Of a stretch of 45,624 nucleotides of DNA, positions 18,780-43,435 are shown piece by piece. Made by a program: the position numbers and the translations under genes. The stretch's first letter is position 1. Every line of letters begins with the position of its first letter. The notes beneath the pieces are model-generated. The model ran no database searches. It had not been told where the DNA came from and worked only from the letters and a program-made list of their open reading frames with translations. This DNA is from a virus. The stretch is from the UHGV virus genome UHGV-0133287; one strand, 5' to 3'.

Positions 18780-19340
18780 TTATTCTTCCTGCTTAATAAA
18801 TCGGGATTCCTGGAGCGCCTGAAGCGCAAAATTAATCTCGTCTTCAATAATGCGTTCGATCTCCCTGGCTGTTTTGCCTTCACAACGGGGAGCTGCTCTT
18901 GGAGCAATACTAAATAAGCGGCTACGCAATTCATTAGCTGCCAGAAATGCATCATCCCTGACCGCATCTTTAGCGATGAGAGAGCCTTCCTTTTCTTCAA
19001 ATTCAAGGCGTTTCAGCTTTGCCTGATAAATTTTTTCTGCGGTCTTAGCCTTGTTGAATTGCACCGCAACACCGGAAGTACCACCAGCTAATCCGGCATC
19101 ATCAGCGGGTAACTCTGGTTGTTCCGAAGATATCCCATGCCCTCTTTTTCCATTTTCAGCAGATACCTCACGACCAACCTGTCGGCTCGCTTCATAAGCC
19201 GCACTAGCTTTATCAAAATCCAGCTTGCCGCTTTTCAGCACTGGAATGCGACCGGAACGACAGAGCTTCGTAACCATTGCCGGAGAAATACCTTTTCGGC
19301 GGGCAAACTCTGACTTACTGACGATGGCCATTACTTGCAA
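18780..19340 (-). CDS. terminase small subunit (Nu1-like, N-terminal wHTH)
   Basis: 186-aa ORF immediately upstream of the large subunit; N-terminus KSEFARRKGISPAMVTKLCRSGRIPV is a winged-HTH like Nu1. Confidence 0.55.
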   Translation of the reverse strand: MQVMAIVSKSEFARRKGISPAMVTKLCRSGRIPVLKSGKLDFDKASAAYEASRQVGREVSAENGKRGHGISSEQPELPADDAGLAGGTSGVAVQFNKAKTAEKIYQAKLKRLEFEEKEGSLIAKDAVRDDAFLAANELRSRLFSIAPRAAPRCEGKTAREIERIIEDEINFALQALQESRFIKQEE

Positions 19341-19921
19341 CCATTAGCAAGATACTGAACAAATCCCTCATGCGTTTCATGCGCGTCGTGGTACTGACGA
19401 TAAACATCCAGCAACAATGCAATTTCCATATCCGTCGCGGGAATACGTTCTTTATCAATAGCCAGGTACTTAATTTGAACAACAGGGGAAGAATTATCGT
19501 CTTCTTCCTGCGGCTGTTCATCGCTTAACATTTCGTCAAGCTCTGCATCATTAAACCCAAGCAGATCAATATCAAAATCATCATCCATTAACGCTTTGAC
19601 TTCTTCGGCCAGAAGCTGCATATCCCAGCCAGCATTTAAGGCCAGCTTGTTATCTGCAATCCTGTAAGCCTTCTTCTGTTTTTCAGAAAGGTTACTCAAC
19701 CGAATCGCTGGAACTTTATCCATTTCCAGAATTTCGGCTGCTGCAAGCCGCCCATGCCCCGCAATCAGTTCATTCTTTTCATCGATCAGCACAGGATTAG
19801 TGAAACCGAACTCACGGATACTGTTCACCAACTGTTCAACTTGCTCATCTGAATGAGTCCGTGAATTTTTGGCGTATCTGAGCAGCTTACCGACTGGTAA
19901 ATATTCGATTTTTAGAGCCAT
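19331..19921 (-). CDS. ParB-like nuclease domain protein (paralog A)
   Basis: 196-aa ORF with the ParB/Srx motif IAGHGRLAAA; overlaps the terminase small subunit start by 10 bp. Confidence 0.65.
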   Translation of the reverse strand: MALKIEYLPVGKLLRYAKNSRTHSDEQVEQLVNSIREFGFTNPVLIDEKNELIAGHGRLAAAEILEMDKVPAIRLSNLSEKQKKAYRIADNKLALNAGWDMQLLAEEVKALMDDDFDIDLLGFNDAELDEMLSDEQPQEEDDNSSPVVQIKYLAIDKERIPATDMEIALLLDVYRQYHDAHETHEGFVQYLANGCK

Positions 19922-21214: not shown

Positions 21215-22594
21215 CTACTTAATCAACGGCCGGAAAGCCGCCAGCACATCATCAGATCGTCCGATTGTTGAACCACCAGGCAACGGCAACTCAAACTCAA
21301 AACGAACAGCTTTCTCCAGACTCGCCCAACTAAGGGAATCATCGTTAATGACGTGCAAATACCAGCTCTTACAGTTGAATATTGACCGCTTAATCCTGAA
21401 ACCATGTACACGACACAACTGCTTCACTTCCTCATCAGAGTGAAACTTCTGGTAAAACCAGTGCCCCTTCCGGTACAACGCGGTAAAACCGTTATGATCA
21501 ATAAAATAAAGCCGGCTTTTGGAACTCGCCGCTTGTGTCTGCTTCAGGACTGTTTCCAGCTCTCCACGGCTACGGCCAGAAAAGAATATTGACCCACCAG
21601 CTTTACACAGCCCTTTCAGAACCGTCAGAACGGACCATTCAGCCTCGACACTATCGACCGAGTTCAAAACGCTATCGCAAATCACGTAGTCGTAACGCCC
21701 TCGCGTTTTTAAGTCGTCCACCAGCGTATCAATCATCCGGTTTGTTGCGGTCCTATCCAGAGTGTTTCCAGCGCCCTTACGGCGGAAAAGCTCAAGATCA
21801 TGCAGGTTATATCCCTTTGCCCTGAGCATTCGCGCGTAGTCTCCCTGACCCGAACCAAAATCAATTCCTCTTGGCGTCTTGGCAATGATCGGGAGGATCA
21901 ACGACTCATACAGGTTTGATTTCAGGCTGCCACCATTACGCAACCGCATAAGCTGCGCATACGTCTGGATGTATGTTGTTTTCTCCAGATGAGAATACTC
22001 AAATACACCATAAGTTTTATTCAGATAACTTTGGTATTTTTCCTTCTCAACATCAGGGATCACAAACACCGTTAGCGGTGTGCGCGTCATCTTCGCTGCT
22101 AATGCATACTGAGCACAGTGAATAACCTCGCCAGACTGCGTAGCAACACAACCACCCCACGGACCATACTTGATAACCAGTTCCGCTATGTTCTTTCGAA
22201 CATATGCCATTTTCGCGCGCATATTGCCTGAGATCTGGCTTGCCGATACCTGAACAAAACCATGCTTATCTTCCAGACCGGACACCCTGCAACGCTCATC
22301 TCCGCTATCAAAATCCGTTCCGTTATGCAGTTGGTTAAACCGTACTTCGTCGTATACCGTCGTTTCACAGGGCAACACATACACCGCAGCACGCGTTATT
22401 CCCAACTTACGTAGCGCCTTCGTCCTTTGGTGTCCCGCCACCAGCAAATCGCCGCGCACTATCAATGGCTTCACAAGCCCCAGCTCCCTGACGCTTTCCG
22501 CCAGCCTCGCAAGATCATCCTCACCGATAAAACGCGGGTTATATTCCGCACCGCGTAGGTGCGTTATGTCGTAATTGAGGTGAAGCATCAGCAC
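21215..22594 (-). CDS. ParB-like N-terminal domain fused to class-I SAM-methyltransferase-like domain
   Basis: 459-aa ORF. N-terminus has LVAGHQRTKALRKLGI (ParB/Srx GxxR motif). C-terminal half has a glycine-rich IDFGSGQGDYA (SAM-binding motif I-like) and YDYVICDSVLNSV. No DPPY/NPPY or PCQ motif seen, so it does not look like a classical DNA amino- or C5-methyltransferase. Confidence 0.55.
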   Translation of the reverse strand: MLMLHLNYDITHLRGAEYNPRFIGEDDLARLAESVRELGLVKPLIVRGDLLVAGHQRTKALRKLGITRAAVYVLPCETTVYDEVRFNQLHNGTDFDSGDERCRVSGLEDKHGFVQVSASQISGNMRAKMAYVRKNIAELVIKYGPWGGCVATQSGEVIHCAQYALAAKMTRTPLTVFVIPDVEKEKYQSYLNKTYGVFEYSHLEKTTYIQTYAQLMRLRNGGSLKSNLYESLILPIIAKTPRGIDFGSGQGDYARMLRAKGYNLHDLELFRRKGAGNTLDRTATNRMIDTLVDDLKTRGRYDYVICDSVLNSVDSVEAEWSVLTVLKGLCKAGGSIFFSGRSRGELETVLKQTQAASSKSRLYFIDHNGFTALYRKGHWFYQKFHSDEEVKQLCRVHGFRIKRSIFNCKSWYLHVINDDSLSWASLEKAVRFEFELPLPGGSTIGRSDDVLAAFRPLIK

Positions 22595-23211
22595 ACCTCC
22601 CCAGCCAGCAATGCGGATACAAATCCGATATAGCTGCCATTATCATCAACATAACGAGATACCGCGCAGTCAAAACGATCCGCTTCCTCATCCGTTGCCG
22701 GGATTTTATGACCTCCAAATGACAGGTACTGAACTTTTACGCCTGATTTGGCCTCATCCTTCTCAAATGGGATATCCATACCCTCTGTGTCATCGTAGAC
22801 CGCCGCACTCAATAAGTTATCCAGTTCGCGCTGAGTAAAACCAATTGAGTCCAGAGCAAAATCATCGGCCGCAAGATCTGCAAGCTCCGCGCTTAACAAC
22901 TCTTCATCCCAACCAGCATTCAGCGGAATACGGTTGTCGGCCAGACGATATGCCTTCTTCTGATTCTCCGTTAGCCCAGCCAGAACAATGCAGGGAACAT
23001 CATCCATCCCCAACTGAGTGGCCGCAGCAATTCGACCATGACCAGCAATTACAACGTTGTTCTCGTCTATCAGGATCGGATTAGTCCATCCGTACTCCTG
23101 TATGCTGGCAACAATCTGATCTACCTGCTCCACGGAGTGTGTGCGAGCGTTCTTTTCATAACCAATCAACACAGAAAGTGGTAAAGAAACCACATTAAGA
23201 TGTTTTGTCAT
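22588..23211 (-). CDS. ParB-like nuclease domain protein (paralog B)
   Basis: 207-aa ORF with IAGHGRIAAA; colinear with paralog A over about 200 aa (roughly half identical by eye); overlaps the downstream fusion gene by 7 bp. Confidence 0.65.
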   Translation of the reverse strand: MTKHLNVVSLPLSVLIGYEKNARTHSVEQVDQIVASIQEYGWTNPILIDENNVVIAGHGRIAAATQLGMDDVPCIVLAGLTENQKKAYRLADNRIPLNAGWDEELLSAELADLAADDFALDSIGFTQRELDNLLSAAVYDDTEGMDIPFEKDEAKSGVKVQYLSFGGHKIPATDEEADRFDCAVSRYVDDNGSYIGFVSALLAGEVC

Positions 23212-24793: not shown

Positions 24794-24994
24794 TTAATGC
24801 TCGCGTCGTCCGGCGACAACTTCGGATTTGTATTTCAGGTCGCCCAGCAAGAATTGCAGTTTAAGCATCTTTGCCGCCGTGTAGTTCCCTGATTCCACAA
24901 CCTCTTTCATGAGGTCATAAACGGCCGCTACATCATCAGCCAGGAACTCTTTGCGTTGCTGCTCAGTCGCACGTTTGAAGGAAATACGCATCAC
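24794..24994 (-). CDS. hypothetical protein
   Basis: 66-aa ORF overlapping the upstream gene stop by 4 bp. Confidence 0.3.
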   Translation of the reverse strand: MMRISFKRATEQQRKEFLADDVAAVYDLMKEVVESGNYTAAKMLKLQFLLGDLKYKSEVVAGRREH

Positions 24995-25260
24995 TCATCA
25001 TCTCCTGCCGCACATACAACCTCACAAAAAACATCAGCGGAATGTTTCTCCTTGAACGAATGACGCTCAAAACCGCACTCAATATCAGGCGCAAAAACAT
25101 CCACCACATACGGTCTTTCAGAATGTTCGTTTTCCCAACGATAAACCGTAGTGACGTTGAAATGTTTTAACGCTTCACGGAACTCAACGCTGCCCGTCAG
25201 GTTTTTTGAGGTCAGGTATTGCAGGAGGTTTTTTACTACTTCACGGTCTTGTACTTTCAT
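24991..25260 (-). CDS. hypothetical protein (first gene after leader copy A)
   Basis: 89-aa ORF whose ATG follows GGAGATAACCCG at the end of the conserved leader cassette. Confidence 0.35.
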   Translation of the reverse strand: MKVQDREVVKNLLQYLTSKNLTGSVEFREALKHFNVTTVYRWENEHSERPYVVDVFAPDIECGFERHSFKEKHSADVFCEVVCAAGDDE

Positions 25261-25377
25261 CGGGTTATCTCCGGTTTAACCAGGGCGGGTATCGCTCGGT
25301 TTCGGGTATAACCATAGGAAATTTTTTCCCATCCGTAAAGCGCTTTTTATATAAATCTATAATTATATAATTCTATG
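25261..25377 (-). promoter_or_regulatory. conserved promoter/leader cassette, copy A
   Basis: About 115 bp nearly identical to 32437-32557 and 41314-41430. In the minus-strand sense it carries an AT-rich palindromic block (TATATAATTATAGATTTATATAAA), a TTTAC(G/A)-N17-TATGGT promoter-like pair, then a ~45-nt leader ending GGAGATAACCCG-ATG. Confidence 0.5.
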
Positions 25378-25960: not shown

Positions 25961-26267
25961 GTTAATTGTGCCTCCGGCGCTTATCTCCGGCAGTCATAAC
26001 GCTGGCCAGCTCTACAGCAAACACAACGAAAAGGGCACTAACCAGACTGATTAATGCCCTTGCCTGTTGTGTGCCGGATATCGCCCGACAACGCTGTTTT
26101 GGTAACACGGCTACAGTTCCGTGCCGCTCCAGCTTTTACCCCTTTGCGGATAACAGGCCCTGCCTGTAACTTAGCCCCACGTTCGCCCGAAATGCGCACT
26201 AGGCACGCATAAAGATGAGCACGAAGAAGTAACTCCACCGCGCTTATCTTTATGTGTGAGAGTGAAT

Positions 26268-26343
26268 TGGTGGCCCCTACCGGATTTGAACCGATGACCG
26301 TGCGATTATGAGTCGCCTGCTCTAACCACTGAGCTAAGGGGCC
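26268..26343 (-). tRNA. tRNA with CAU anticodon (Met or lysidine-type Ile2)
   Basis: 76-nt minus-strand sequence GGCCCCTTAGCTCAGTGGTTAGAGCAGGCGACTCATAATCGCACGGTCATCGGTTCAAATCCGGTAGGGGCCACCA folds by hand into a cloverleaf: 7-bp acceptor stem, GCTC/GAGC D-stem, CUCAUAA anticodon loop, TTCAAAT T-loop, encoded CCA. The 5' half resembles E. coli ileX as I recall it. Confidence 0.8.
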
Positions 26344-26512
26344 ATATTTGATTTGTTTGTCTGGTGTGGCGCCGCGCACGAAAATCCCAGCCAATAAATT
26401 CAGGATTTTTGGGCGCGGCGGCATATCAGACAAACATGGTTGATGCGTGCGCCCATGAGAAAAGCGCATAGAATGTTGTAACTATATATTTATATAATTA
26501 TAGAAATATATA

Positions 26513-28130: not shown

Positions 28131-28164
28131 TTAAAAAAAAAGCCCCGCCGAAAAAGGCAGGGCT
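28131..28164 (-). terminator. intrinsic terminator 12 nt upstream of the holin start
   Basis: Minus strand: AGCCCTGCC-TTTTTC-GGCGGGGCT hairpin followed by nine U residues, ending 12 nt before the holin ATG with only an RBS between. Confidence 0.55.
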
Positions 28165-28309
28165 TCATAAAGCAACAAATTACGCGGTAATCGCTTAACG
28201 CAGTTTTACTACGTTAAATGAAACACTACACCCAGTTACCACCTAAAACAAGGTTTCTCCATAAAAAAACCTTCAAAACGTGGTTAATCGATCAATAAAA
28301 AAACAATTC

Positions 28310-28585
28310 TCACAGTAGTGCAGAAAAGAATAGCGGCTTAACTGCTTTCCTCACCTCACTAGCATACATCCCCGCAGCTATCTCAGTTGTGAACAAACGC
28401 CCTCCAACTAGCCATGCAACAGGTGCAGATGCCAGGGATGCCAATGCAATTTCATCGGTAGCAAGCTCTCTTTCAAGATACTCACGAAATCCGGGGTTAA
28501 TAGTTACCGTATCCAACATTCTCTGGCGCGCCACCTTACGTTCACGAATATGGGCGATCAATTGCTCTTTGGTACAAGTAGCCAC
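28310..28585 (-). CDS. hypothetical protein
   Basis: 91-aa ORF upstream of the pre-holin terminator. Confidence 0.3.
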   Translation of the reverse strand: MATCTKEQLIAHIRERKVARQRMLDTVTINPGFREYLERELATDEIALASLASAPVAWLVGGRLFTTEIAAGMYASEVRKAVKPLFFSALL

Positions 28586-30714: not shown

Positions 30715-31013
30715 TCCTCATCTGCAACGGGGGTGTTCCGCTCCAGCACCTTGTCCGCATCAGCGATCAGGTTTGCCAGACTCTTGTCTGAAATCTTCGT
30801 TACCGGAGTCGTTGGTTGCTCAACCTGCCCGATAGGTTTTATCGTGCTCAAAAGGAGGCGACGGCGGGAAAGTGGTGCCCCACAACGACGGCCATCTTCC
30901 TTGCGATATGTTTCTTTCGGACCAACACACCATGTTGTCGGCGTTTCGCGCAACTTCACTCTTTTCTCACCATCAATGGTGATGATTATTCCGGTATGGG
31001 TTTTGATGCTCAT
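30648..31013 (-). CDS. hypothetical protein
   Basis: 121-aa ORF in the same-strand operon; no motif recognised. Confidence 0.3.
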   Translation of the reverse strand: MSIKTHTGIIITIDGEKRVKLRETPTTWCVGPKETYRKEDGRRCGAPLSRRRLLLSTIKPIGQVEQPTTPVTKISDKSLANLIADADKVLERNTPVADEEWWQDFRAAMLELQERRREELK

Positions 31014-31312
31014 GCCACAGCCCCTCTCAACGGCTTAACTTTGGCTAATAAGGTGTTAAACAACATGGAGTTAGGATTCATGCCAAATGGCAATTCCGGT
31101 TTAGCGGAGTAGTACAGGCAACCATTTATTTTCCTGGTTGTTATCTGTCCTTCGGCAACCATGCTTCTCAGTCTGCAACGCATAGAGTTCTGCGACACAC
31201 CAATGTGCTCCGCGATTACGTCCACTTTTGAACATGGGTGATCGGTCAGGAAATTAATCACATCTTGGGGGTTAATAATTTTGCGTTTCATTGTCGAGGC
31301 GTCCTTATACAT
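31010..31312 (-). CDS. hypothetical DNA-binding protein
   Basis: 100-aa ORF preceded by the AT-rich palindromic motif at 31311-31337. Confidence 0.3.
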   Translation of the reverse strand: MYKDASTMKRKIINPQDVINFLTDHPCSKVDVIAEHIGVSQNSMRCRLRSMVAEGQITTRKINGCLYYSAKPELPFGMNPNSMLFNTLLAKVKPLRGAVA

Positions 31313-31336
31313 TTATATAAATATATAATTCTATAT

Positions 31337-31358
31337 ACGGCGGGAGACATCCCGCCGT
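31337..31358 (-). terminator. hairpin (possible attenuator) after the 355-aa gene
   Basis: Perfect 9-bp stem ACGGCGGGA-GACA-TCCCGCCGT followed on the minus strand by an AT-rich run that merges into the palindromic promoter motif. Confidence 0.35.
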
Positions 31359-31368
31359 AGGCTTACTG

Positions 31369-32436
31369 TCAGGCTTTCAATAGCGATTCTTTCAGATATC
31401 GGGCATCAGCCAGGGCGTTTGGAGTAATCTTGCGAACCCATGCATTACGGGTTGGACTCCACTTAAAGGCGCGTGATTTAAGCAGCGAACGAATGTTTGC
31501 CTCTGGTTTGCCAGGGAAATAAAACAGGATGCGGTTATCCTCTGGATCTATCTCCATAGAAAAGCCGTCGTATTCTTCGCGCTGTGCTCCTGTTACAGAC
31601 TTGACCGATTCAAGCTCCTTAATACGGCTCTGTAGTCGTTTGATTTCGGCGTTATTGTTGCTCAGTGCGTATGAAGGGAATCCGATGCGCCCACAGAAAT
31701 CTCCGGCCAGTAACTCTTTGGCTTCGCTTTCTGTAAACCTGAGATCGATTAATGCAGAAAGCTGCTGTAATTGGTCTTTTTTGTATTTGCGAATGGCCTT
31801 ATTTGCGGCCTTCATTTTGACGTGTGACTTCATGCAGCCTTGCAGCTTACGAAGCAACTTAAATAGCGCATCAGGATCATCAGACGAAATTCCATTACGA
31901 CCAACACCTGCGGCTTTGCTCTCGTAGTGTGATGCTTTACTTTCGCATTCAACAAACGCTTTTCTGAATAACGCATCAGCTTTAGACAAACGGCGGCGAT
32001 GGCCTTTCGCGCTATAATGGTCAACTAAAATCGGCTGGCCTAACGGGATCACATCCAACAGGTCATGCGCTCGCTTATGCGCTACCGCACCTTCTTTTCT
32101 GGCTTTTTCTGCACGAGCAATATATCGGGCAAGACGCGCGTTCTGGCGTTCCTGATAGGTGTTTACGTAATCATCTCCGCGCTGCTGCTGTTCAAGCCAT
32201 GCTTTGCGCAGATCTTCTGTTACGTCCACCAGCTCCGCAGGGATACAACCAGTTTGGGCTTCATAAGAGTAACCATCCTCATAGATACGCCCATCGTCTT
32301 CAACAAAGAAAAAGGTTTCGTGCTCATCGCTTTTGACCATACGACCATTAACATGGCGTAATAGGTAGCCAGTATCAGTGCTTAACAGGCTGTTAGGGTT
32401 GTTGATCCAGTCAGAAATAATTACTTGTTTATTCAT
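31369..32436 (-). CDS. hypothetical protein, first gene after leader copy B
   Basis: 355-aa ORF with a charged coiled-coil-like central region; possibly a DUF3560-like phage/plasmid protein (uncertain). Confidence 0.4.
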   Translation of the reverse strand: MNKQVIISDWINNPNSLLSTDTGYLLRHVNGRMVKSDEHETFFFVEDDGRIYEDGYSYEAQTGCIPAELVDVTEDLRKAWLEQQQRGDDYVNTYQERQNARLARYIARAEKARKEGAVAHKRAHDLLDVIPLGQPILVDHYSAKGHRRRLSKADALFRKAFVECESKASHYESKAAGVGRNGISSDDPDALFKLLRKLQGCMKSHVKMKAANKAIRKYKKDQLQQLSALIDLRFTESEAKELLAGDFCGRIGFPSYALSNNNAEIKRLQSRIKELESVKSVTGAQREEYDGFSMEIDPEDNRILFYFPGKPEANIRSLLKSRAFKWSPTRNAWVRKITPNALADARYLKESLLKA

Positions 32437-32557
32437 CAGATTTCTCCGGTTTAACCAGGGCGGGTATCGCTCGGTTTCGGGTATAACCTTAGGAAATTTT
32501 TTCCCACCTGTAAAGCACTTTTTATATAAATCTATAATTATATATTTATAGATTTTC
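32437..32557 (-). promoter_or_regulatory. conserved promoter/leader cassette, copy B (directly downstream of the Q-like gene)
   Basis: Near-identical to copies A and C over about 110 bp; begins 49 bp downstream of the Q-like gene stop. Confidence 0.5.
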
Positions 32558-32605: not shown

Positions 32606-32983
32606 TCACTCTCTTCGCTTTTTCAAATAGTCGACAACATACGCCCTGGCTTTTGCCAGCTTCCGGCGATACTGTCTGAGACTAAGAGAAAGGGCGTGGG
32701 CTTTATCAATATGCGGTGCATTTATGTCGAGGCCCCGAATCTCCCACGCCCCGTATTCAATTCGGACAACCAGCGCCGCAGTCTCATCAACTACCGTGAG
32801 GGCCGTCACCGCTCCCTCGATACTGGTTTCCAGTGAGTCATTTGGTGCGCCGCCCCCTCCGGTAAACTGGCAACGCGTAACCATCATCATTTCTAACATC
32901 GACGCGAAACCGCTACGGGCGTTGCAGCCATTGCGCACCCACAGCGCCCATAGCTCAAACAAGCTATCCAGATCGCGTCTCAC
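32606..32983 (-). CDS. antitermination protein Q-like (QuuD-type)
   Basis: 125-aa ORF; N-terminus DLDSLFELWALWVRNG resembles the LERWGAWAANN pattern of small Q antiterminators such as DLP12 QuuD, and it sits after nin-like genes as in lambdoid phages. Confidence 0.5.
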   Translation of the reverse strand: MRRDLDSLFELWALWVRNGCNARSGFASMLEMMMVTRCQFTGGGGAPNDSLETSIEGAVTALTVVDETAALVVRIEYGAWEIRGLDINAPHIDKAHALSLSLRQYRRKLAKARAYVVDYLKKRRE

Positions 32984-36254: not shown

Positions 36255-36389
36255 CTGCAAGCGGGCTAACGCCCGCTTATATGATTATAGATTTATATAA
36301 TTATATAAAACGCTTTTCATCCGCCAAAAAGTTGGTTATGCTTACCTCGTTCTATAAATATAGATTTATAGAATTATATAATCAAACAC

Positions 36390-37058
36390 ATGGAGTCTCG
36401 ACAAATGACTATCTCTGTAGGTATTTTCAACGGAAAAGGCGGCGTAACCAAATCAACAATTGCCCGTGCTTTAGCAGTTGCTTATGCAAAGGCTGGCTGG
36501 AATGTATGCCTGATCGATATGGATGTGCTTAACGGAACGGTAACGCGTTGGGTACAACGCAGAATGGCCAACAATATCGAACCAGCAATCGCGGCGCAGC
36601 CGTGCGGCACACCATCACAAGTCCAGAAAATCATCGAATCAGAAGTATACGACCTGGTTATCGTCGATGGCGGTGCCTACGCATCTGAATCAGTACCGAA
36701 GCTATCTGAATTTCTGGATATGGTTATTTTGCCAACCCGATTCTCTACCGATGACCTGGAAACCACCGTTAACACTGCTCACGGCATCGTTAAAAAGGGT
36801 GTACCAATCAAGAAAATTTGCATGGTGTTTTCCGGCGCGGCTGAAAACGAAGCTGACTATATTGAAGCCCAAGAGTACCTGGCTAATACGCCATACTTTG
36901 TTGTCGATAAGTACATTCCCCACAAGCCAGCTCTGAGCAAAGCTCAGGATAAGGGCTTAAGCCTCATTGAGTGCTCATACGTTGCACCACGCAAAAAGGC
37001 AGACGACGTTATTCAGGGGATTATCAACCAGCTTGAGGCTCTGACTACTGCCGCGTAA
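36390..37058 (+). CDS. parA: ParA-family partition ATPase (small ParF-like)
   Basis: 222-aa ORF with a deviant Walker A (GKGGVTKST). Alternative start at 36405 (MTISVG...). Confidence 0.8.
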   Translation: MESRQMTISVGIFNGKGGVTKSTIARALAVAYAKAGWNVCLIDMDVLNGTVTRWVQRRMANNIEPAIAAQPCGTPSQVQKIIESEVYDLVIVDGGAYASESVPKLSEFLDMVILPTRFSTDDLETTVNTAHGIVKKGVPIKKICMVFSGAAENEADYIEAQEYLANTPYFVVDKYIPHKPALSKAQDKGLSLIECSYVAPRKKADDVIQGIINQLEALTTAA

Positions 37059-37093
37059 TATATAATTATAGATTTATATAAGAGGGGATACAC

Positions 37094-37342
37094 ATGGCCG
37101 CACCATCAAAACCACCAAAGAAGAACAGCAAAGGCGTACCGCCATCGATCGAACAACCGCAGGTTTTCGACCCGACTGAAACGCCAACCAGAACCAAATC
37201 AGGTGGGGCACAAATGGCGTTTAACGTCGACCCTGAATTTAAACGCGAGTACAAAACGTTCGCCAGCTCAATGGATATGTCATTGAAAGAAGTGCTGACA
37301 AAATCTTTTGAGTTACTCAAGGCTCAATACAACCAGAAGTAA
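37094..37342 (+). CDS. small partition DNA-binding protein (ParG-like, RHH)
   Basis: 82-aa ORF 36 bp after parA; basic disordered N-terminus, C-terminal AFNVDPEFKREYKTFASSMDMSLKEVLTKSFELL consistent with a ribbon-helix-helix fold. Confidence 0.45.
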   Translation: MAAPSKPPKKNSKGVPPSIEQPQVFDPTETPTRTKSGGAQMAFNVDPEFKREYKTFASSMDMSLKEVLTKSFELLKAQYNQK

Positions 37343-37562: not shown

Positions 37563-37586
37563 ATAAAAAAGGCCCCCGAAGGGGCC
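37563..37586 (-). terminator. intrinsic terminator (minus-strand; convergent transcription stop)
   Basis: GGCCCC-CGAA-GGGGCC hairpin preceded on the plus strand by an A run, giving a U run on the minus strand. Confidence 0.45.
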
Positions 37587-38456
37587 TAATCGCTACTTGC
37601 TGCTAATGTTTATCGTCACATTCAGAGCGTTATCAGTAATCTTCCAACCCTCCCCATGTGGCGTAAACAAAGCTCCAGTAACAACGATAAAAATACACAT
37701 ACAGTATTTTTTCATTGTGTGGCCCTTACAGGCCGTTTCACGGCATCTCCACCGACGAAAATGACGCGAGAGCAAGCACTCCGCTTGTGCTTGCGTGTAC
37801 GGCAAGTGGATGATCCTTTCCTTAAAGTCGGTGCCCGGGTGCGAATCGGCGAAAAGGCCCCAAGCCATATTACACGTCCTCGCCTTCATAATGAAGGAAT
37901 AACAATTGCTTTTATTACATGTAATTACATCCGAAGAAGTTAAAAAACTTCATTCTGCATGAACTAAGGAACTAAATTTCTTTATATGAATAGTGGACTA
38001 TTCACCTCAGTTGAGTAAGAATAGATACGCCGCTTGTGCTTGCGTGGTTGTTTACACAACGACGTTATGCTGAAAGGACCGCGAATCCGATCAGCACGAA
38101 AGAACCGTCCTCAATAGGGCGGTTTTTTTGTTTCTGCCTACCAATAAACCCACGCTATGTGGTTGTCTCTGTTAAAATCCCGCCGTATTGACATGAATGC
38201 GCCATTGGTGGACACTTTCCGAGCCGTAGCAAAATCTACGGTCGGGATTGGCGTCCCGATTGCACAATGGCGCATACCGCGTTAGCGGTTTTTTTATGCG
38301 TAAAGCACTGCTACACCCGAATTATGGTGGGGCGTGCGGGGGCGGAGAAATCCGCGCCGGTTTGTCATTGTGCCGGTTACGCCAACCCTGTACGTCTCAC
38401 CACCATATTGATTGGCGTCATTGGTGGTGATAGTTCCTTTAATCGGAGATATCACA

Positions 38457-38648
38457 ATGACAAACCTACCCCATGACTATTACGTCAACCTCGTAAAGAT
38501 CCTTCTCAAGAAAGCCTCATATGCCGATAAATTCCGCCTGGCTGAAATCATCGAGCGCGAAGCTATGCGCATCGCCAGCAACGATAACGCTGTTTCTGAC
38601 GCAAAAATCTCCCTCGTAACCAAAGTAGTTATGGGAGGTGCAAAATGA
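38457..38648 (+). CDS. small ORF translationally coupled to antirepressor (icd-like position)
   Basis: 63-aa ORF (ATG 38457, GGAG RBS) whose stop overlaps the start of the next gene (ATGA); the ORF track shows a longer version starting 38412. Confidence 0.35.
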   Translation: MTNLPHDYYVNLVKILLKKASYADKFRLAEIIEREAMRIASNDNAVSDAKISLVTKVVMGGAK

Positions 38649-39787
38649 AAACGCTTCCGACCGTTAACACCCTACAGCCTATCCTGCATAACCAGATCCC
38701 CGTTATCACTAGTGAACTTCTGGCGCAGTTATACGGAACAAAAATCAAAAACATTTCTGATAACTTTCTGAACAACACGACGCGATTCGTAGCCGGAAAG
38801 CATTACTTTAAAATTGAAAAAAACGAATTACGCGAGTTCAAGAACAGACCCGAAACAATCGGGTTAGTTGGTAAAAATGCCCGCTCCCTAATTCTCTGGA
38901 CCGAACGCGGGGCTGCACGTCACGCTAAAATGCTCGAAACCGATCAGGCGTGGGATGTATTCGAACGGCTGGAAGACTGCTATTTCAGCCAGAACGCGCA
39001 AACGGCCGCGACCGTAACCGTCTCGCCAAACAATGCTCGTGAGGTTGTCGATACGCTCAACGCCAAACCGATGTTTTACATTAAGGTGTGCAATAACGAG
39101 CCACTCACAACCTCAGCCGATGTTGCCCAGGCATTCAGCACCACAAACAATTCCATCGTTATGGCCATCGATGCGTTACGCATTCCTCGCACAGCTGCGG
39201 CGCGTCATTTCTTTAAAGAGCAACGACCGTTGGAAGGAAGCGACCGCGAAATAACAATCTATCGCATGACAAAAGACGGATTTACCTTGCTCATGGAGAG
39301 CATCGACGGTCCCGGCGTGAAAGATATCAAGCTGGCCTACATTGAAGCCTTTAACGCTATCAGCAGCGTGTTAAAAACACAGTACGAGCGCGATCTGGCT
39401 AAACGACTGTACCAGGAAAAAACGATTATCCGCGCGGCAACAGAGCATAATCGGCTATTAACGGAACCGAACTACAGGAAGGAACTAATCAAGGAGTTTG
39501 ACAAGGCAACAGGGAAAACCAAAGCGGCGCTAAATCTGCCAGCAATGACTCAGGAAAATGTGATATCAGCCTTACTTCTTGATCTACTCAGAAACGCCAG
39601 AGCACTTATCAGCTTTGACGAAAACCTGAATCCTCAACTCAAGCTACTACCACCGACAGGCAAAGTAGTCGACCAGGCTGATCACAACAGCATACTCAGC
39701 GTACTGGATGCAAACCTGCCAACCAGGACACTACAGGATCTGATAAAAACATGTGCTGATAAGCTGGCACAGAAAAGCAGACCATAA
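38645..39787 (+). CDS. putative antirepressor / phage regulatory protein
   Basis: 380-aa ORF whose N-terminal ~110 aa (ITSELLAQLYG...GAARHAKMLETDQAWDVFERLEDCYF) resembles anti-repressor N-domains; preceded by an about 700-bp structured leader. Confidence 0.45.
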   Translation: MKTLPTVNTLQPILHNQIPVITSELLAQLYGTKIKNISDNFLNNTTRFVAGKHYFKIEKNELREFKNRPETIGLVGKNARSLILWTERGAARHAKMLETDQAWDVFERLEDCYFSQNAQTAATVTVSPNNAREVVDTLNAKPMFYIKVCNNEPLTTSADVAQAFSTTNNSIVMAIDALRIPRTAAARHFFKEQRPLEGSDREITIYRMTKDGFTLLMESIDGPGVKDIKLAYIEAFNAISSVLKTQYERDLAKRLYQEKTIIRAATEHNRLLTEPNYRKELIKEFDKATGKTKAALNLPAMTQENVISALLLDLLRNARALISFDENLNPQLKLLPPTGKVVDQADHNSILSVLDANLPTRTLQDLIKTCADKLAQKSRP

Positions 39788-40596: not shown

Positions 40597-40869
40597 TCAT
40601 TTGATCCCTTGTTCCAATTCTGACGACACTTTAACCTTTTCCCATACAAGGGTTTGCAGCCTTAACAGAATCGCATCTTTATCAAGGTGTGAAAGATCCT
40701 TAACCATATCGTCAAACGACAGAACGCGAATGGCCATCTCAATGACCCTCGGCGGCTCCCCCTTCTCATATCGCTTATATGTAGCCAACGATATCCCAAA
40801 TTCTTCGGCGGCTCGCTCCTGCGTCCAGTTCATCCCACGACGCCATAATTTCAATTCATAACCCGTCAT
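40597..40869 (-). CDS. HTH-XRE family transcriptional regulator
   Basis: ORF track gives 40597-40902; the internal Met with an AGGAGG RBS is the likelier start. HTH motif TQERAAEEFGISLATYKRYEKG. Confidence 0.5.
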   Translation of the reverse strand: MTGYELKLWRRGMNWTQERAAEEFGISLATYKRYEKGEPPRVIEMAIRVLSFDDMVKDLSHLDKDAILLRLQTLVWEKVKVSSELEQGIK

Positions 40870-40897
40870 AGCATCCTCCTCGCACAATATTAACACT

Positions 40898-40924
40898 CGC
40901 AAAGTGTCAAAATGACACTTTGCG
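40898..40924. promoter_or_regulatory. perfect 12-bp inverted repeat (candidate operator)
   Basis: cgcaaagtgtca-aaa-tgacactttgcg immediately upstream of the HTH regulator RBS. Confidence 0.4.
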
Positions 40925-40932
40925 CATTGTGT

Positions 40933-41313
40933 TTACTTAACGAGGAATAAAAATGGTTTATTGTTCGGCGGTGTAATCGGGGCTGGCTCGCTTTTGCTCA
41001 TGCGGTCAGTGTACCAGGCCAGCTCCTTGTCAAAGTAAGCCTGATTAAAATAGGCCATGAATGTGGTTTCAAATCCATAACGACCGCTAATACGCAGCAT
41101 CTGATTGCCGTTCTCTGTTTCCAGATATACCTGGGCACGCTCCTGATTCTCCTTCAGCCAGGTTAAAGCCTCATCGCACGAGGACACACGATACTCATCA
41201 TCGTAGCCATCATCGATGCGGCTTGAAGAAGAACGGCAAATCACGCCAACAGAACCAGCCAGGATAGTTTGAATTTTAAGGAAAGCGTTTTTGCGGATTT
41301 TAATCATGCTCAT
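40933..41313 (-). CDS. hypothetical protein, first gene after leader copy C
   Basis: 126-aa ORF following GGAGATAACCCG-ATG. Confidence 0.35.
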   Translation of the reverse strand: MSMIKIRKNAFLKIQTILAGSVGVICRSSSSRIDDGYDDEYRVSSCDEALTWLKENQERAQVYLETENGNQMLRISGRYGFETTFMAYFNQAYFDKELAWYTDRMSKSEPAPITPPNNKPFLFLVK

Positions 41314-41430
41314 CGGGTTATCTCCGGTTTAACCAGGGCGGGTATCGCTCGGTTTCGGGTATAACCATAGGAAATTTTTTCCCACCTGTAAAGCACTTTT
41401 TATATAAATCTATAATTATATAATTCTATG
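41314..41430 (-). promoter_or_regulatory. conserved promoter/leader cassette, copy C
   Basis: Near-identical to copies A and B, including the identical RBS/start context of copy A. Confidence 0.5.
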
Positions 41431-41476: not shown

Positions 41477-41776
41477 TCAGATGTTAAACGCTATTCTTTT
41501 TCCTGTGGGAAGCTCAACATCCAGGCTTAATTTGCCTCCCATAGCTTCAACGTAACGCTTTAATGTCGCCAGCTTTAAATCATTTCCGCGCTGCTCCAAC
41601 TTTGTTACTGCTGGCTGACTAATACCCATCGCCTCAGCAACCTGTTTTTGTGATAACTGGAGTTCTTCACGCATCATCTGCAAGCCGACCTCAAGAATCA
41701 TCTCATCTGCCATTTCTTTAATTCGCGCCTGGCTTTCCGGTGAACGGCTGGCAATCACCTCATCTAATGTTCTCAT
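41477..41776 (-). CDS. HTH-type antitoxin (HigA/XRE-like)
   Basis: 99-aa ORF with HTH LSQKQVAEAMGISQPAVTKLEQ; start overlaps the upstream toxin-like gene stop. Confidence 0.55.
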   Translation of the reverse strand: MRTLDEVIASRSPESQARIKEMADEMILEVGLQMMREELQLSQKQVAEAMGISQPAVTKLEQRGNDLKLATLKRYVEAMGGKLSLDVELPTGKRIAFNI

Positions 41777-42129
41777 TACTTGCTCTCCAGTGTGTTCAGA
41801 TGTGCTGCAAACTCATCCTCAGCTATACGCACCAGTTTTTTATAAAACCGCTTATCGTTACTTTTGTCTCCTGCACAAAGAACGATAGCCCGGCGAATCG
41901 GATCGAACGCATAAAAGGCTCTTATAGGACGGCCAGAAAACTGAACGCGAAGCTCTTTCATATTTTTGTACCGAGAACCTTTTACGGTATCGGCATATGG
42001 CCTGGGTAACTCAGGCCCGTAAACCTGTAGATTTTTCAAATCAGCCAAAACCTTTTCCTGAAGAGCGTCTTCTTGCTCATTTAGCCAGTCGTCAAATCGC
42101 TGGCTAAAAAGTACCGTCCACATGATCAA
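41776..42129 (-). CDS. RelE/ParE-superfamily toxin (Gp49/HigB-like)
   Basis: 117-aa ORF upstream of and overlapping the HTH gene, the toxin-first order of HigB-HigA-type modules; sequence pattern resembles Gp49-like killer proteins. Confidence 0.5.
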   Translation of the reverse strand: MIMWTVLFSQRFDDWLNEQEDALQEKVLADLKNLQVYGPELPRPYADTVKGSRYKNMKELRVQFSGRPIRAFYAFDPIRRAIVLCAGDKSNDKRFYKKLVRIAEDEFAAHLNTLESK

Positions 42130-42367: not shown

Positions 42368-42658
42368 CTATTTTTGTGACTTTACTCCTGGCATATGGAC
42401 TTCCCAGCGACGAATCCCCATAGCTGCGCAAAAATCAGCCACATAATTCAATCCCGCCCATTCGCGGATACCACCACGGGCTTTTTCAATGAAAACGGCA
42501 ATCCCTTTTTTATTGAGAGCAAAAAGCCGCCAGCTTTTTGTCACTTCGTCCTGGGTAGCCACAACACAAGTGAAAGCTCCCATGCGATACAGGTCCAAGA
42601 ACTCTTTGCGTGTTTTGCGTACAAGTTCCATAACAAACCTCATATTTGCATGTTTCAA
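42368..42658 (-). CDS. hypothetical protein
   Basis: 96-aa ORF between the TA module and the replicon. Confidence 0.3.
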   Translation of the reverse strand: MKHANMRFVMELVRKTRKEFLDLYRMGAFTCVVATQDEVTKSWRLFALNKKGIAVFIEKARGGIREWAGLNYVADFCAAMGIRRWEVHMPGVKSQK

Positions 42659-42954
42659 ACATCTGTTTTGTTATCAATGAAGATTAACCCTAACCCAGCG
42701 AAGTAACACAGCAGCGCCCAGGCTGCATACGGAATGCTGGATCTGGATGTGGACTCCTTTAACATCTGCCAGTTGCGAACATTGCGACTATCTTTTAAGC
42801 CTAGTTTTTTGGCTAACTGCGAGCCGCTCATTCCGGTCAGGCCAATGACTGCCCGAACTTCTCCACATGTAGGAGATTCCCATTCATCCGCTTTTTTTAA
42901 ACAAGCCGGATTCAACATTTTTAAAACAGTATCTTTATCCATAACCATCTCCAT
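42655..42954 (-). CDS. hypothetical protein with C-terminal hydrophobic segment
   Basis: 99-aa ORF; possible HTH (GMSGSQLAKKLGL) and a C-terminal TM-like stretch. Confidence 0.3.
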   Translation of the reverse strand: MEMVMDKDTVLKMLNPACLKKADEWESPTCGEVRAVIGLTGMSGSQLAKKLGLKDSRNVRNWQMLKESTSRSSIPYAAWALLCYFAGLGLIFIDNKTDV

Positions 42955-43435
42955 TTATTATATCTACGATGGTAGGAAATCTTTTCCTATGTGGCAATAG
43001 AAATTTACTACATTGCGTATAAGACAAGTTTTCTATGTCTAATAGGAAATGATGTTTCTTACGTTTTATCGCGTTCTGATGGCTACTGTGTGCGTATTTA
43101 TCGACGTTTATTGATAAGGCTCGCCTCTTCCTCCTGCAAAGCCCGGCCGTAGGCCTTATTTCGGCCTTATATAAATTGATTTTGTATAGTTCGAAACGCG
43201 CCGTTTCGAAAAGGATGATCAGGCTGCTCCATGCCTCCGGCAAGTGCCGGAGGAGGTATATTTGAGCGTAGCGACTCGAACCGGCGCGAGCTTTAGCTCG
43301 CTGCAAGGGCGAACATATTCACAGGCAAAGCCTGCGTAAGTTAAATAAAGAAAGTCTTAATAAAAGAAAGTGATTTTGCATTTATTTGTTTAGTGCATCT
43401 ATTATAAAAAACCATTTGCATATACATATCAAAAC

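Follow-up and report, generated by a model that had tools for sequence, protein, structure and literature searches.

Repeated promoter cassettes of an Escherichia coli phage-plasmid and their relation to arrays of 8-bp repeats at the partition operon

The phage-plasmid and its three promoter cassettes

The window, i.e. the whole stretch of 45,624 nucleotides that was analysed, is a ~48-kb circular phage-plasmid of E. coli that specifies RepA, ParA, a small ParB, HigBA and ryfA. ParA, HigB/HigA, ryfA, C4/isrK and ant were detected in the window, and the RepA gene (43586-44563, 325 aa) is annotated as such in E. coli ATCC 25922, on a near-identical plasmid; the DUF3560 gene located behind one of the cassettes (cassette B) was accordingly rejected as plasmid replication gene. 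The PLSDB collection contained 63 related plasmids, which are non-mobilizable and ~47-49 kb in size. A search for ParB homologues on non-phage plasmids, which would separate the par genes from the phage genes, yielded none, as 63 of the 63 records belonged to the same phage-plasmid group. The Yersinia phage HQ103 (32 kb) was rejected as unrelated. The cassettes and the genes located at them are the following:

25257-25377, minus strand: cassette A
24991-25260, minus strand: cargo gene of cassette A, 89 aa; the unit ends at the terminator 24772-24749
32432-32552, minus strand: cassette B, 87% identical to copy A in an ungapped alignment
31369-32436, minus strand: cargo gene of cassette B, a DUF3560 gene, 355 aa; followed by a terminator-like hairpin at ~31340-31357
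41310-41430, minus strand: cassette C, 98% identical to copy A
40933-41313, minus strand: cargo gene of cassette C, 126 aa
32606-32983, minus strand: "Q-like" protein, 125 aa, with a sigma-region-4-like fold and Q21 among the best structural matches

An earlier reading of the sequence alone had described three copies of the cassette on the minus strand, and this description holds, with ~120 nt per copy and identities of 87-98%. The copies are direct repeats in one orientation, and their identity extends from an AT-rich block to the ATG or just past it. The coding sequences that follow are unrelated, as had been claimed for the first genes behind the three copies, and each cassette heads its own short unit with terminators after the first one or two genes. 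The motifs quoted in the sequence-only reading were found in the order TATATAATTATAGATTTATATAA, TTTAC(A/G), 17 nt, TA(T/A)GGT, TATACC, leader, GGAG and ATG. The leader indeed ends in a ribosome binding site and an ATG, with a length of 49-50 nt instead of the claimed ~45 nt, and copy B starts 49 bp past the stop codon of the 125-aa gene, as had been stated. A chance origin can be excluded because the pattern of the AT block matches 22 times in comparison with 0.00 expected matches. These data support the view of a shared multi-copy control element that consists of a promoter, a 5' leader and a ribosome binding site. A search of Rfam revealed no family that covers the cassette. Additionally, the AT block without the rest of the cassette is present at five further places in the window, and the promoter core occurs a fourth time at 42969-42997.

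The cargo proteins matched only families of unknown function or DUF3560 in searches of Pfam, PHROGs and PDB, with no relatives in PDB, and these sequence searches revealed no known Acr among them.

Promoter, spacer palindrome and leader of the cassettes

The control signals of the cassettes and of the fourth promoter are arranged as follows:

25311-25339, minus strand: promoter of cassette A, TTTACG (25339-25334), 17-nt spacer with GGGAAAAAATTTCCTA, TATGGT (25316-25311)
25258-25310, minus strand: leader of cassette A, hairpin at ~25301-25278, Shine-Dalgarno sequence (SD) GGAG at 25272-25269, ATG of gene 24991-25260
32434-32514, minus strand: segment with the promoter of cassette B, -35 at 32514-32509 and -10 TAAGGT at 32491-32486, and its leader, hairpin at ~32476-32453, SD, ATG of gene 31369-32436
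41311-41392, minus strand: segment with the promoter of cassette C, -35 at 41392-41387 and -10 at 41369-41364, and its leader, hairpin at ~41354-41331, SD at 41325-41322, ATG of gene 40933-41313
42969-42997, minus strand: fourth promoter, TTGCCA, spacer with TAGGAAAAGATTTCCTA, TACCAT; heads the gene of the Aca-like protein
42655-42942, minus strand: Aca-like helix-turn-helix protein, 95 aa, proposed binder of the spacer palindrome

The cassette promoter is a near-consensus sigma-70 promoter (TTTACA-17-TATGGT), and the 17-bp spacer contains the palindrome TAGGA-N7-TCCTA, which abuts the -10 region. The exact sequence GGAAANNNTTTCC occurs four times, namely in the three cassettes and in the promoter of gene 42655-42942, where the same core is found and both the array and the hairpin are absent. 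A profile of the 95-aa protein family matched the helix-turn-helix domain of AcrIF24 (E 1e-7) and Aca3 (E 1e-3) in PDB. Homologues of this protein are encoded in 7 of the 7 cassette-bearing loci in which the region is covered and in 0 of 6 cassette-less loci, and the distribution of the palindrome splits likewise by the presence of the cassette, apart from one loose match in locus L021. A dimer of the 95-aa protein may accordingly be the factor that binds the spacer palindrome and blocks RNA polymerase. Two further candidates for this role were rejected: a homologue of the helix-turn-helix protein HTH-101 (40597-40902) was present in L034 only, and HigBA-like pairs, which would include HigA, also occur in cassette-less lineages.

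AcrIF24 acts on a short inverted repeat of its own promoter and thereby represses the operon (PMC9638941). The arrangement described here resembles the Aca-controlled acr promoters (acrIF23-acrIF24) in that a strong promoter carries an inverted repeat inside its core and in that a small dimeric helix-turn-helix protein is the predicted repressor, the gene of which has the same operator. In contrast to the Aca systems, the regulator is encoded outside the cassette-driven operons under the control of its own promoter, and the cassette promoters carry a second, ParB-type array. The only hint of a link between the cargo genes and anti-defence is the Aca-like regulator.

The first 25-30 nt of the leader form a hairpin that starts 2-4 nt past the predicted transcription start. 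A covariance model of the leader detected 29 copies, which are spread over 10 sources, namely the window and 9 loci with 1-4 copies each. The sequence-only reading had called for a search for covariation or structure in the leader, and this search was positive: the hairpin is 95% paired, with 4 of the 7-8 pairs changed on both sides. The hairpin includes G-U pairs, and controls with shifted partners collapse. It probably acts as a stabiliser of the mRNA 5' end. Moreover, a segment that covers the -10 region and the discriminator, and hence precedes the predicted start, shows complementarity to the Shine-Dalgarno region. This fold-back complementarity, the reading of which assumes a start 7-8 nt past the -10 region as predicted, exceeds that of 95% of the shuffled sequences in 19 of the 26 distinct copies. 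The pairing is built from different sequences in three lineages, and it is absent or different in copy B, in L034 and L035 and in one L043 copy. In IS10, an inverted-repeat arm upstream of the transcription start reportedly pairs with the ribosome binding site and masks it in read-through transcripts (a finding attributed to Davis, Simons and Kleckner in 1985). The predicted fold-back of the cassettes is similar to that of the IS10/IS50 transposase genes in that an arm upstream of the start would pair with the ribosome binding site in read-through transcripts only. The latter differs in being part of a transposon end and not of a phage-plasmid promoter cassette, and the comparison applies to 19 of the 26 copies, with a predicted start site. 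Targeting of the leader by the C4, isrK or ryfA RNAs was rejected, as the duplex energies were no better than those of shuffles (z -0.02 to -1.1); the C4 loop GUUUGUCAUUGUG finds its pairing partner in the icd start region (38456-38468) and not in the cassette leader.

Arrays of 8-bp repeats and the partition operon

The arrays and the partition operon are located at the following positions:

25346-25377, minus strand: array of cassette A, units CATAGAAT TATATAAT TATAGATT TATATAAA, putatively bound by the small ParB
26481-26512, minus strand: array past the spanin genes; the tRNA gene 26268-26343 follows ~140 nt downstream
31304-31335, minus strand: array at the MarR-like gene 31010-31312, directly past the terminator-like hairpin and directly before the SD
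32521-32552, minus strand: array of cassette B, units TCTATAAA TATATAAT TATAGATT TATATAAA
36278-36309, plus strand: array in the par control region, upstream of the parA promoter
36351-36382, plus strand: second array in the par control region, between the parA promoter and the SD
37059-37082, plus strand: array between parA and the small parB, three units, directly before the parB SD
41399-41430, minus strand: array of cassette C, four 8-bp units, directly past the terminator 41462-41440
36278-36382, plus strand: par operon control region with TTTTCA (36314-36319), 17 nt, TATGCT (36337-36342), then SD and parA
36405-37058, plus strand: ParA-like Walker ATPase, small, of type Ib size; the ORF is also readable from 36390
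37094-37342, plus strand: small ParB, 82 aa, with a basic, disordered tail and then a strand-helix-helix C-terminus (ribbon-helix-helix-like); proposed binder of the arrays

The AT-rich block of the cassettes consists of four contiguous 8-bp units (TATAnAnn) that end 6 bp upstream of the -35 region, and it represents the same type of array as those around the parA promoter and between parA and parB. The window contains eight such arrays, each with three to four 8-bp units, in comparison with 0 expected. The eight sites are kept in complete relatives, and the structural genes contain none; the array between parA and parB comprises four units in L025 versus three in the window. The repeat unit is lineage-specific, being TATAnAnn, GATATAAA/TATATCTT, ATATAAAT, TAAATAAA/TATTTAAT, TCTTTAAA or AAAGCACG, and each lineage's own unit is also dispersed over several other intergenic sites. 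In diverged relatives the unit is replaced at every site at once, and in L043 a window-like cassette core is preceded by an upstream array that consists of this locus' own par unit.

It is unlikely that the arrays are only centromeres, or only AT-rich UP elements or sites of host nucleoid proteins, with a promoter adjacency that is without regulatory meaning. Dispersed centromeres, as reportedly found in the phage-plasmid N15 by Ravin, Rech and Lane in 2008, would be in line with the former possibility, and AT-rich DNA upstream of a -35 region, which often works as UP element, with the latter. However, the arrays hold fixed positions relative to the -35 region or the SD, which argues for a regulatory role, and the known par sites of ribbon-helix-helix proteins double as centromere and operator. 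That the unit changes from lineage to lineage, and at all sites together, argues for a specific binder encoded by the element instead of a host factor, and the unit of one lineage contains G+C (AAAGCACG). The sign of the regulation is most likely negative, although activators and UP elements also occupy DNA upstream of the -35 region, where the cassette array is located. Promoter repression does not explain the arrays that are positioned directly before an SD and have no recognisable promoter, i.e. those at 31304 and 37059 and some in the relatives.

Regarding the binder encoded by the element, the partition operon provides the best candidate. The ParA protein comprises 217-222 aa with matches to CbiA/ParA/MipZ and is followed by the 82-aa gene, and this gene order is shared by the window and 14 related loci, 15 genomes in total. 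The layout of the par promoter, with an array, the -35 and -10 regions, a second array and the SD, was detected in 15 of the same 15 genomes. The co-variation, which was observed directly like the anatomy and copy pattern of the cassettes and the protein homologies, indicated that the array unit tracks the predicted DNA-reading strand of the small ParB and not the helix-turn-helix of the Q-like protein, as the predicted ParB strand differs with each motif. For instance, a ParB with ..LLLRL.. in L036 is accompanied by GATATC-type units and a ParB with ..LLLQL.. in L044 by units without G/C, despite identical helix-turn-helix sequences of the Q-like proteins; L043 and L045 have nearly the same Q-like helix as L036 and L044 and quite different units. 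L034 and L035 have the same motif and a ParB with 91-95% identity, whereas the CI-like repressor and a 124-aa protein have diverged (61-65% and 52-60% identity). The CI-like repressor was rejected as binder of the AT block, since its operators are of the type ACCAC-N6-GTGGT and since it diverges where the motif does not. An AlphaFold model of ParB, computed from a shallow alignment, comprises a disordered region (residues 1-40) and two helices (47-59 and 62-80). In alignments by hhalign with sequences of ParG and omega that were entered by hand, ParB matched the ribbon-helix-helix domains in register (probability 41% for ParG and 16% for omega, the latter a sequence similarity not above chance), and its profile weakly matched SvtR in PDB (E 0.74). 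No match was obtained in Pfam, and a fold search with the monomer model found nothing. A ribbon-helix-helix-like fold is thus a weak assignment for ParB. We infer from the co-variation that dimers of the small ParB coat the 8-bp arrays, an assignment which, like that of the palindrome binder, was drawn from ~8 lineages that differ everywhere else too.

That the arrays are bound by another protein of the element, either the 124-aa protein or ParA, and that ParB has no transcriptional role appears quite unlikely. The gene of the 124-aa protein is located between CI and parA, next to the par promoter, and the protein is highly variable between lineages (19-28% identity), as might be expected of such a binder, and the weak ribbon-helix-helix assignment of ParB also leaves room for it. 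Its divergence in L034 and L035, where motif and ParB are conserved, speaks against this role, and domain searches revealed no recognisable DNA-binding domain in the 124-aa protein. A ParA of this small size, on the other hand, lacks the N-terminal DNA-binding domain of the type Ia proteins.

Proposed control of the cassettes and related systems

With the small ParB as candidate array binder, we consider it fairly probable that the cassettes are doubly repressed promoters that head three small, terminator-bounded units. The three cassettes would be members of a set of eight dispersed par sites, and ParB dimers on the four 8-bp units upstream of the -35 region would make ParB a global regulator that couples the cassette promoters to the partition and copy-number state, most likely by repressing or damping them, as is the case for omega and ParG. 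The Aca-like 95-aa dimer on TAGGA-N7-TCCTA would then block RNA polymerase, the leader hairpin would stabilise the 5' end of the mRNA, and the upstream arm of the fold-back would mask the ribosome binding site only in transcripts reading in from upstream.

The nearest analogues of this putative system appear to be omega of pSM19035 and ParG of TP228. The omega sites overlap three promoters, require at least four contiguous repeats for full activity and serve as both centromeres and operators (PMC9499535). The phage-plasmid shares with omega/pSM19035 a small ParB with a tail, here predicted to be flexible, and contiguous short-repeat arrays at dispersed positions, here eight arrays at promoters or gene starts with predicted binding. 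The omega sites of the Firmicute plasmid comprise 7-10 heptads of 7 bp per site, whereas the enterobacterial phage-plasmid has 8-bp units and four per site. ParG autoregulates the par operon and has a flexible N-terminal tail, and its site consists of direct and inverted 4-bp boxes with 4-bp AT-rich spacers, so that a box occurs every 8 bp and is bound by one dimer (PMC3130281). The 8-bp periodicity of ParG/parH-OF of TP228 (type Ib) is thus the same. The ParG sites differ in being known only upstream of parFG, whereas the arrays of the window extend over 16 kb and unrelated operons, and the ParG box ACTC is unrelated in sequence to TATAnA. In N15 (SopB) and RK2 (KorB), scattered sites of the partition protein near promoters link partition to the expression of other genes, as is proposed here. 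SopB and KorB are large helix-turn-helix ParB proteins of type Ia that recognise 13-16-bp palindromes, whereas arrays of 8-bp repeats and a small ribbon-helix-helix protein are proposed here.

If the proposed control is correct, a ribbon-helix-helix partition protein would act as genome-wide regulator, a role hitherto documented in Firmicute plasmids such as pSM19035, and the promoters controlled by the partition protein would in addition be subject to an Aca-type repressor. Together, the eight arrays and the four palindromes would constitute a compact and directly testable regulon for which a standard laboratory strain is available, the lineage-specific units paired with the ParB strand residues would provide a natural table of DNA-recognition specificity, and the small genes behind the cassettes would become anti-defence candidates. 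More tentatively, and with considerable doubt, the small partition protein of this widespread enterobacterial phage-plasmid family may be regarded as master regulator of the whole non-structural half of the element, with a three-layer insulation of plasmid-state genes. In this reading, arrays head nearly every unit of this half (par, the cassettes, the MarR-like operon and the tRNA), are also found at the terminator before the lysis genes in relatives, and are swapped wholesale between lineages along with ParB. Combined with the arrays and an Aca-type repressor, the fold-back would let the cassette genes be expressed only from their own promoter, and possibly anti-defence genes of the plasmid state would thereby be insulated inside a phage genome. 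To our knowledge, the separation of plasmid-state from lytic-state expression in phage-plasmids has been studied in few models only (P1 and N15).

The sequence-only reading had compared the position of copy B with that of a lambdoid late promoter with its Q-binding and pause region, a comparison that is for the most part not supported. Such Q-dependent late promoters, at which the Q-like protein binds the 8-bp repeats, loads on a polymerase that has paused at the second -10-like hexamer and passes downstream terminators with it, represent a rather improbable explanation. Like the PR'-qut regions of lambda, 82 and 21, the locus contains a promoter followed by a terminator as well as a gene for a sigma-region-4-like protein that resembles Q21, and Q21 recognises 8-bp direct repeats; searches of Pfam, PHROGs and PDB with the Q-like sequence mostly yielded nothing. 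However, the binding element of Q21 adjoins its pause element, whereas ~40 bp separate the array from every candidate pause element. TATACC, which the sequence-only reading had pointed out as a further -10-like hexamer, is present in the window and not conserved in close relatives, which have AGTAAC (L034) or GACAAC (L008 and L035). Moreover, arrays of the same kind are found on both sides of the parA promoter and before parB, the unit changes between lineages with identical or nearly identical Q-like helix-turn-helix sequences, six loci keep the Q-like gene and lack the cassette, and in relatives the site past the Q-like gene consists of an array directly followed by an SD instead of a cassette. 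The Q-like protein is therefore probably not the array binder. At 28139-28310, directly before the holin gene, another stretch resembles PR' and contains a strong terminator (28166-28139), the upstream region of which is its own and carries no cassette.

An origin of the repeat as IS or MITE terminus or as recent functionless chance duplication, which the high identity of the copies and their concerted evolution within each genome might suggest, is extremely improbable, as all copies have one orientation without inverted ends, target duplications or transposase, as ~48-kb plasmids harbour 214 of the 217 cassette places in E. coli and do so at three orthologous positions, and as homologous cassettes of diverged sequence are present in distant relatives. 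The database search that the sequence-only reading had proposed for the element thus assigned it to one phage-plasmid family and to no IS or MITE end.

Accessory and resistance genes are commonly carried by phage-plasmids. The whole cassette occurs three times per genome in three Yersinia phages and in 74 of 5426 complete E. coli genomes, with a median of three places. The family is carried by ~1.4% of the complete E. coli genomes, including the reference strain ATCC 25922.

Cassette copies and their repeat arrays

The three minus-strand cassettes, which the sequence-only reading had taken to be near-identical copies heading different operons, were recovered as such, since the minus-strand reading and the alignment agree on near-identity from the AT-rich block to the ATG codon. 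According to the alignment of the three copies, their flanks and downstream coding sequences are mutually unrelated. Each cassette is composed, in order, of the AT-rich block, 6 nt, TTTAC(A/G), 17 nt, TA(T/A)GGT, a leader of 49-50 nt, GGAG and ATG.

Cassettes located by the repeat finder and the units headed by them
25257-25377, minus strand: cassette A; 89-aa and 66-aa genes, then terminator 24772-24749
32432-32552 (87%), minus strand: cassette B; DUF3560 gene, terminator-like hairpin, next array immediately after
41310-41430 (98%), minus strand: cassette C; follows terminator 41462-41440, drives a 126-aa gene and a 101-aa helix-turn-helix gene

The related locus L044 contains four cassettes heading four small genes, each bounded by terminators. 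Three 49-kb Yersinia phages carry three cassettes each, and the cassette is present in 74 of 5426 complete E. coli genomes at a median of three places per genome. The database check for an insertion sequence or MITE indicated that it is not a scattered mobile repeat, with 214 of the 217 E. coli places on plasmids of ~48 kb. Judged by this distribution in Yersinia phages and E. coli plasmids, the repeat is real, selected or homogenised, and confined to one element family. The copies evolve in concert, since those within a genome share private variants (GGTAGTAACCAG...GATAGTCGC...AATATCTG in all three copies of L034) and the TATGGT/TAAGGT polymorphism sits at different copy positions in different genomes.

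The pattern of the AT-rich block yielded 22 matches at eight places of the window, with none expected, and each place consists of three or four TATAnAnn units in 8-bp register. Two of these arrays flank the parA promoter (TTTTCA-17-TATGCT), the layout of which is homologous to that of the cassette promoter; one separates parA from the 82-aa gene, one follows a terminator-like hairpin directly before the Shine-Dalgarno sequence (SD) of a MarR-like gene, one is located upstream of a tRNA, and three belong to the cassettes. Judged by sequence, the AT-rich block of the cassettes is the predicted par operator array. The operators of the CI-like repressor, located within its divergent control region and ahead of the ant operon, differ from the arrays and read ACCAC-N6-GTGGT.

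A second recurrent module comprises an array and, within the next 10-20 nt, an SD together with the conserved sequence (C/T)TCGACAA(A)TG, which sits at the start codon. Both parA and the MarR-like gene have this module, as does, in relatives, the gene following the Q-like gene (window 31287-31336 and 36351-36407; L023 6331-6388; L043 12735-12790; L044 10377-10440). No recognisable promoter is present between the array and the SD with CTCGACAA in the window and its relatives, and promoter repression fails to account for arrays directly before an SD without a promoter.

Lineage-specific units and the candidate array-binding protein

Homologues of the Q-like protein (125 aa, 32606-32983, minus strand) led to 15 related loci (34-92% identity), 14 of which cover the par region. 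ParA and the small ParB (82 aa, 37094-37342, plus strand) are kept in 14 of 14, a CI homologue in all except L045, and a p164 homologue was detected in all except L040 and L045. In all these loci the par promoter has its -35/-10 between two arrays, with an SD after the second, and each lineage's own repeat unit is also dispersed at several other intergenic places.

Repeat units of the window and related loci
Window, L034, L035: TATAnAnn
L023, L036-L039: GATATAAA / TATATCTT
L044: ATATAAAT
L021, L040: TAAATAAA / TATTTAAT
L024, L041: variants of the L021/L040 unit
L043: TCTTTAAA, four direct copies
L045: AAAGCACG

Cassette-less lineages carry the array between or over -35 and -10 (TTGACA/TTGACT, then array; L040 12050-12160; L021 9260-9300, 14934-14970) and not upstream of -35; therefore, the operator position relative to the promoter differs between family branches. 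The small ParB of TAAATAAA-type lineages has an insertion in its N-terminal tail with an AT-hook-like motif (RGRGRPRK, GVGRPK; L021 3869-4165; L024 4365-4652; L040 about 6537-6830), which is missing from cassette-bearing lineages. The cassette core of L043 resembles that of the window and the array upstream of it is L043's own par unit, so that array and promoter represent separate modules.

Two proteins, the small ParB and the Q-like protein, are plausible readers of the 8-bp repeats. Q21 recognises two 8-bp subsites arranged as a direct repeat (bioRxiv 10.1101/651190). In the alignment, the C-terminal helix-turn-helix of the Q-like protein (..SLRTYKRKLAKAR) does not differ among L023, L036-L039 and L044 and is almost unchanged in L043 and L045, and despite this shared motif the units of those lineages are GATATC-type, G/C-free, TCTTTAAA and AAAGCACG. 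Ahead of its two helices, the small ParB has a stretch that varies in each case (QMAFNV, QLLLRL, QLLLQL, LMNFNV, PLNFKR); within it, the sole change between L036 and L044, from Arg to Gln, coincides with a unit that has lost its G/C positions. L034 and L035, with an unchanged unit, encode a ParB of 91-95% identity, along with a CI of 61-65% and a 124-aa protein of 52-60% identity. These sequence comparisons make the small ParB the probable binder of the arrays.

The model of the small ParB comprises a disordered basic tail of ~40 residues and helices 47-59 and 62-80, a predicted layout that is the pattern of a ribbon-helix-helix monomer. In hhalign, the protein aligned in register with the domain of ParG at a probability of 41% and with omega at 16%; a PDB profile search returned only SvtR (E 0.74), and no match was obtained in Pfam, a second PDB search or a fold search. 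A ParG dimer of TP228 occupies each 4-bp box, with 4-bp AT-rich spacers separating the boxes (PMC3130281), and in pSM19035 three promoters contain contiguous 7-bp repeats to which omega binds (PMC9499535). We propose that the cassette and array system may work in the manner of the pSM19035 omega regulon and the TP228 ParG operator; the window adds a candidate Aca-type operator on array-bearing promoters. The gene organisation and the repeat arrays of the ribbon-helix-helix ParB class were both found. Among phage-plasmids, the dispersed SopB sites of N15 are to our knowledge the sole comparable case. The protein-DNA assignments, the transcript start and the sign of regulation are predicted.

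Promoter core, leader and the Q-like protein

An alignment of cassettes from four lineages revealed homology from -35 to ATG with 73% mean column identity, and a covariance model recovered 29 full copies, distributed at 1-4 per source over the window and nine loci (10 sources), and none in L021, L022, L024, L026, L040, L041 and L045. The -35 and -10 hexamers and their 17-bp spacing are conserved. TATACC, which the sequence-only reading had regarded as a second -10-like hexamer, is not: it is replaced by AGTAAC in L034, GACAAC in L008 and L035, and CTCTTC in others. The Q-like protein itself has no Pfam match; its AlphaFold model (mean pLDDT 77) retrieved Q21 structures best in Foldseek (probability 0.9, E 0.3, TM 0.5), with sigma region 4 next, so that calling the protein 'Q-like' is reasonable, though unproven. 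Immediately ahead of the holin gene there is a PR'-like stretch that includes a strong terminator (28139-28310, minus strand), a more conventional site of Q action than the cassettes. Several lineages (L023 14900-14965; L038, L041, L026) have a ParB array directly upstream of the pre-holin terminator, which is not so in the window.

The spacer invariably contains the palindrome TAGGA-N7-TCCTA abutting the -10, one pair of which covaries. GGAAANNNTTTCC occurs exactly four times in the window, namely in the three cassettes and in the promoter 42969-42997, which is devoid of array and leader hairpin and heads the gene of a 95-aa protein (42655-42942, minus strand). Its profile matched the helix-turn-helix domain of AcrIF24 (E 1e-7) and Aca3 (E 1e-3); AcrIF24 represses its own operon via a short inverted repeat in the promoter (PMC9638941). 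Homologues are encoded in all seven cassette-bearing loci covering the region (L034, L036-L039, L043, L044), in L036 and L044 inside a cassette-driven unit, and are absent from six cassette-less loci, though the neighbouring 96-aa gene is present in some. The distribution of the palindrome parallels this split, with one loose match in L021 as the exception. The 95-aa protein is quite possibly an Aca-type repressor with TAGGA-N7-TCCTA as its operator.

The predicted RNA start, 7-8 nt after the -10, precedes by 2-4 nt a hairpin whose outer stem has 4 bp (AACC/GGUU, GACC/GGUC or GGCC/GGCC) and whose inner stem has 3-4 bp. The covariation check of the leader upheld this structure: in a hand-made alignment, 95.5% of the hairpin cells pair and four of eight pairs are changed on both sides, events of which few are independent, as they come from no more than three or four lineages. 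When the partners were shifted by one to three columns, pairing in the whole structure of spacer palindrome and hairpin fell to 24-51%; the 29-copy alignment, which is fitted to the model, agreed with the hand-made one on the hairpin. The occurrence of G-U pairs points to an RNA hairpin rather than a DNA palindrome, and its 5'-end position suggests mRNA stabilisation.

Moreover, the -10/discriminator segment and the SD region have complementary sequences.

Complementary arms over the -10 and at the SD
Window A/C: GGUUAU..CCG and CGG..AUAACC
L043 copy 2: GGUUAUCUC and GAGAUAACC
L036-L044: UAUCUCUUCA and UGAAGAGAUA

This pairing exceeded 95% of the 5'-segment shuffles in 19 of 26 distinct copies and is missing in copy B, L034, L035 and one L043 copy. 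Only read-through transcripts could pair, since the -10 arm lies upstream of the predicted start. The arrangement may be likened to the fold-back inhibition of IS10, and an SD pairing formed only by read-through transcripts is a tentative, rather doubtful reading of the complementarity.

Gene content of the phage-plasmid

The window is a circular phage-plasmid. Its minus strand encodes, in order, an invertase, a 325-aa protein, HigB/HigA and an early operon ending in the Q-like gene; accessory genes, holins, endolysin, spanins, a tRNA and a methyltransferase; and three ParB/Srx-domain proteins followed by terminase, head and contractile-tail genes. The plus strand encodes the CI-like repressor, the 124-aa protein, the small ParA, the 82-aa protein, a ryfA locus and an isrK-C4-icd-ant module. 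The 325-aa protein is annotated as plasmid initiator RepA in a near-identical plasmid of E. coli ATCC 25922, and 63 non-mobilizable plasmids of 44-52 kb in PLSDB carry the 82-aa gene.

The replication module varies in the family, with an IncFII-type RepA in L021 (143-973) and L024 (815-1645) and the different 325-aa RepA in the window (43586-44563); the backbone of CI, par and early operon and the dispersed arrays are kept despite this change. The ryfA match (37565-37862, minus strand; Rfam 135 bits) is located between the par genes and the ant module. Members of the ryfA family are described as type I toxin-antitoxin loci, and ryfA together with HigB/HigA (41477-42129) is consistent with plasmid maintenance. 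The proteins with ParB/Srx N-terminal domains (19331-19921, 21215-22594 and 22588-23211; 196, 459 and 207 aa) are encoded in the interval separating cassette A from the terminase genes, and none of them is the small ParB encoded in the par operon.

The tRNA at 26268-26343 (anticodon CAT), ~140 nt downstream of an array and overlapped by the mechanical ORF 26038-26469, was assigned as tRNA-Met by ARAGORN versus tRNA-Ile in RefSeq (ATCC 25922 plasmid). Three 93-nt direct repeats (534-926; 74-83% identity) and three 45-nt segments with 120-nt spacing (6284-6568) within a 930-aa gene (5833-8625) probably encode repeated segments of tail-fibre or tape-measure proteins. The isrK and C4 antisense RNA module (38223-38470) precedes both an icd-like ORF and an antirepressor of the ORF6N/Rha type (38645-39787). 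Complementarity exists between the C4 loop GUUUGUCAUUGUG and the start region of icd (38456-38468), and between ACGCCAA and TTGGCGT at 38411-38417; a CI-type operator, CCACGCTATGTGG (38150-38162), is located upstream of the operon promoter.
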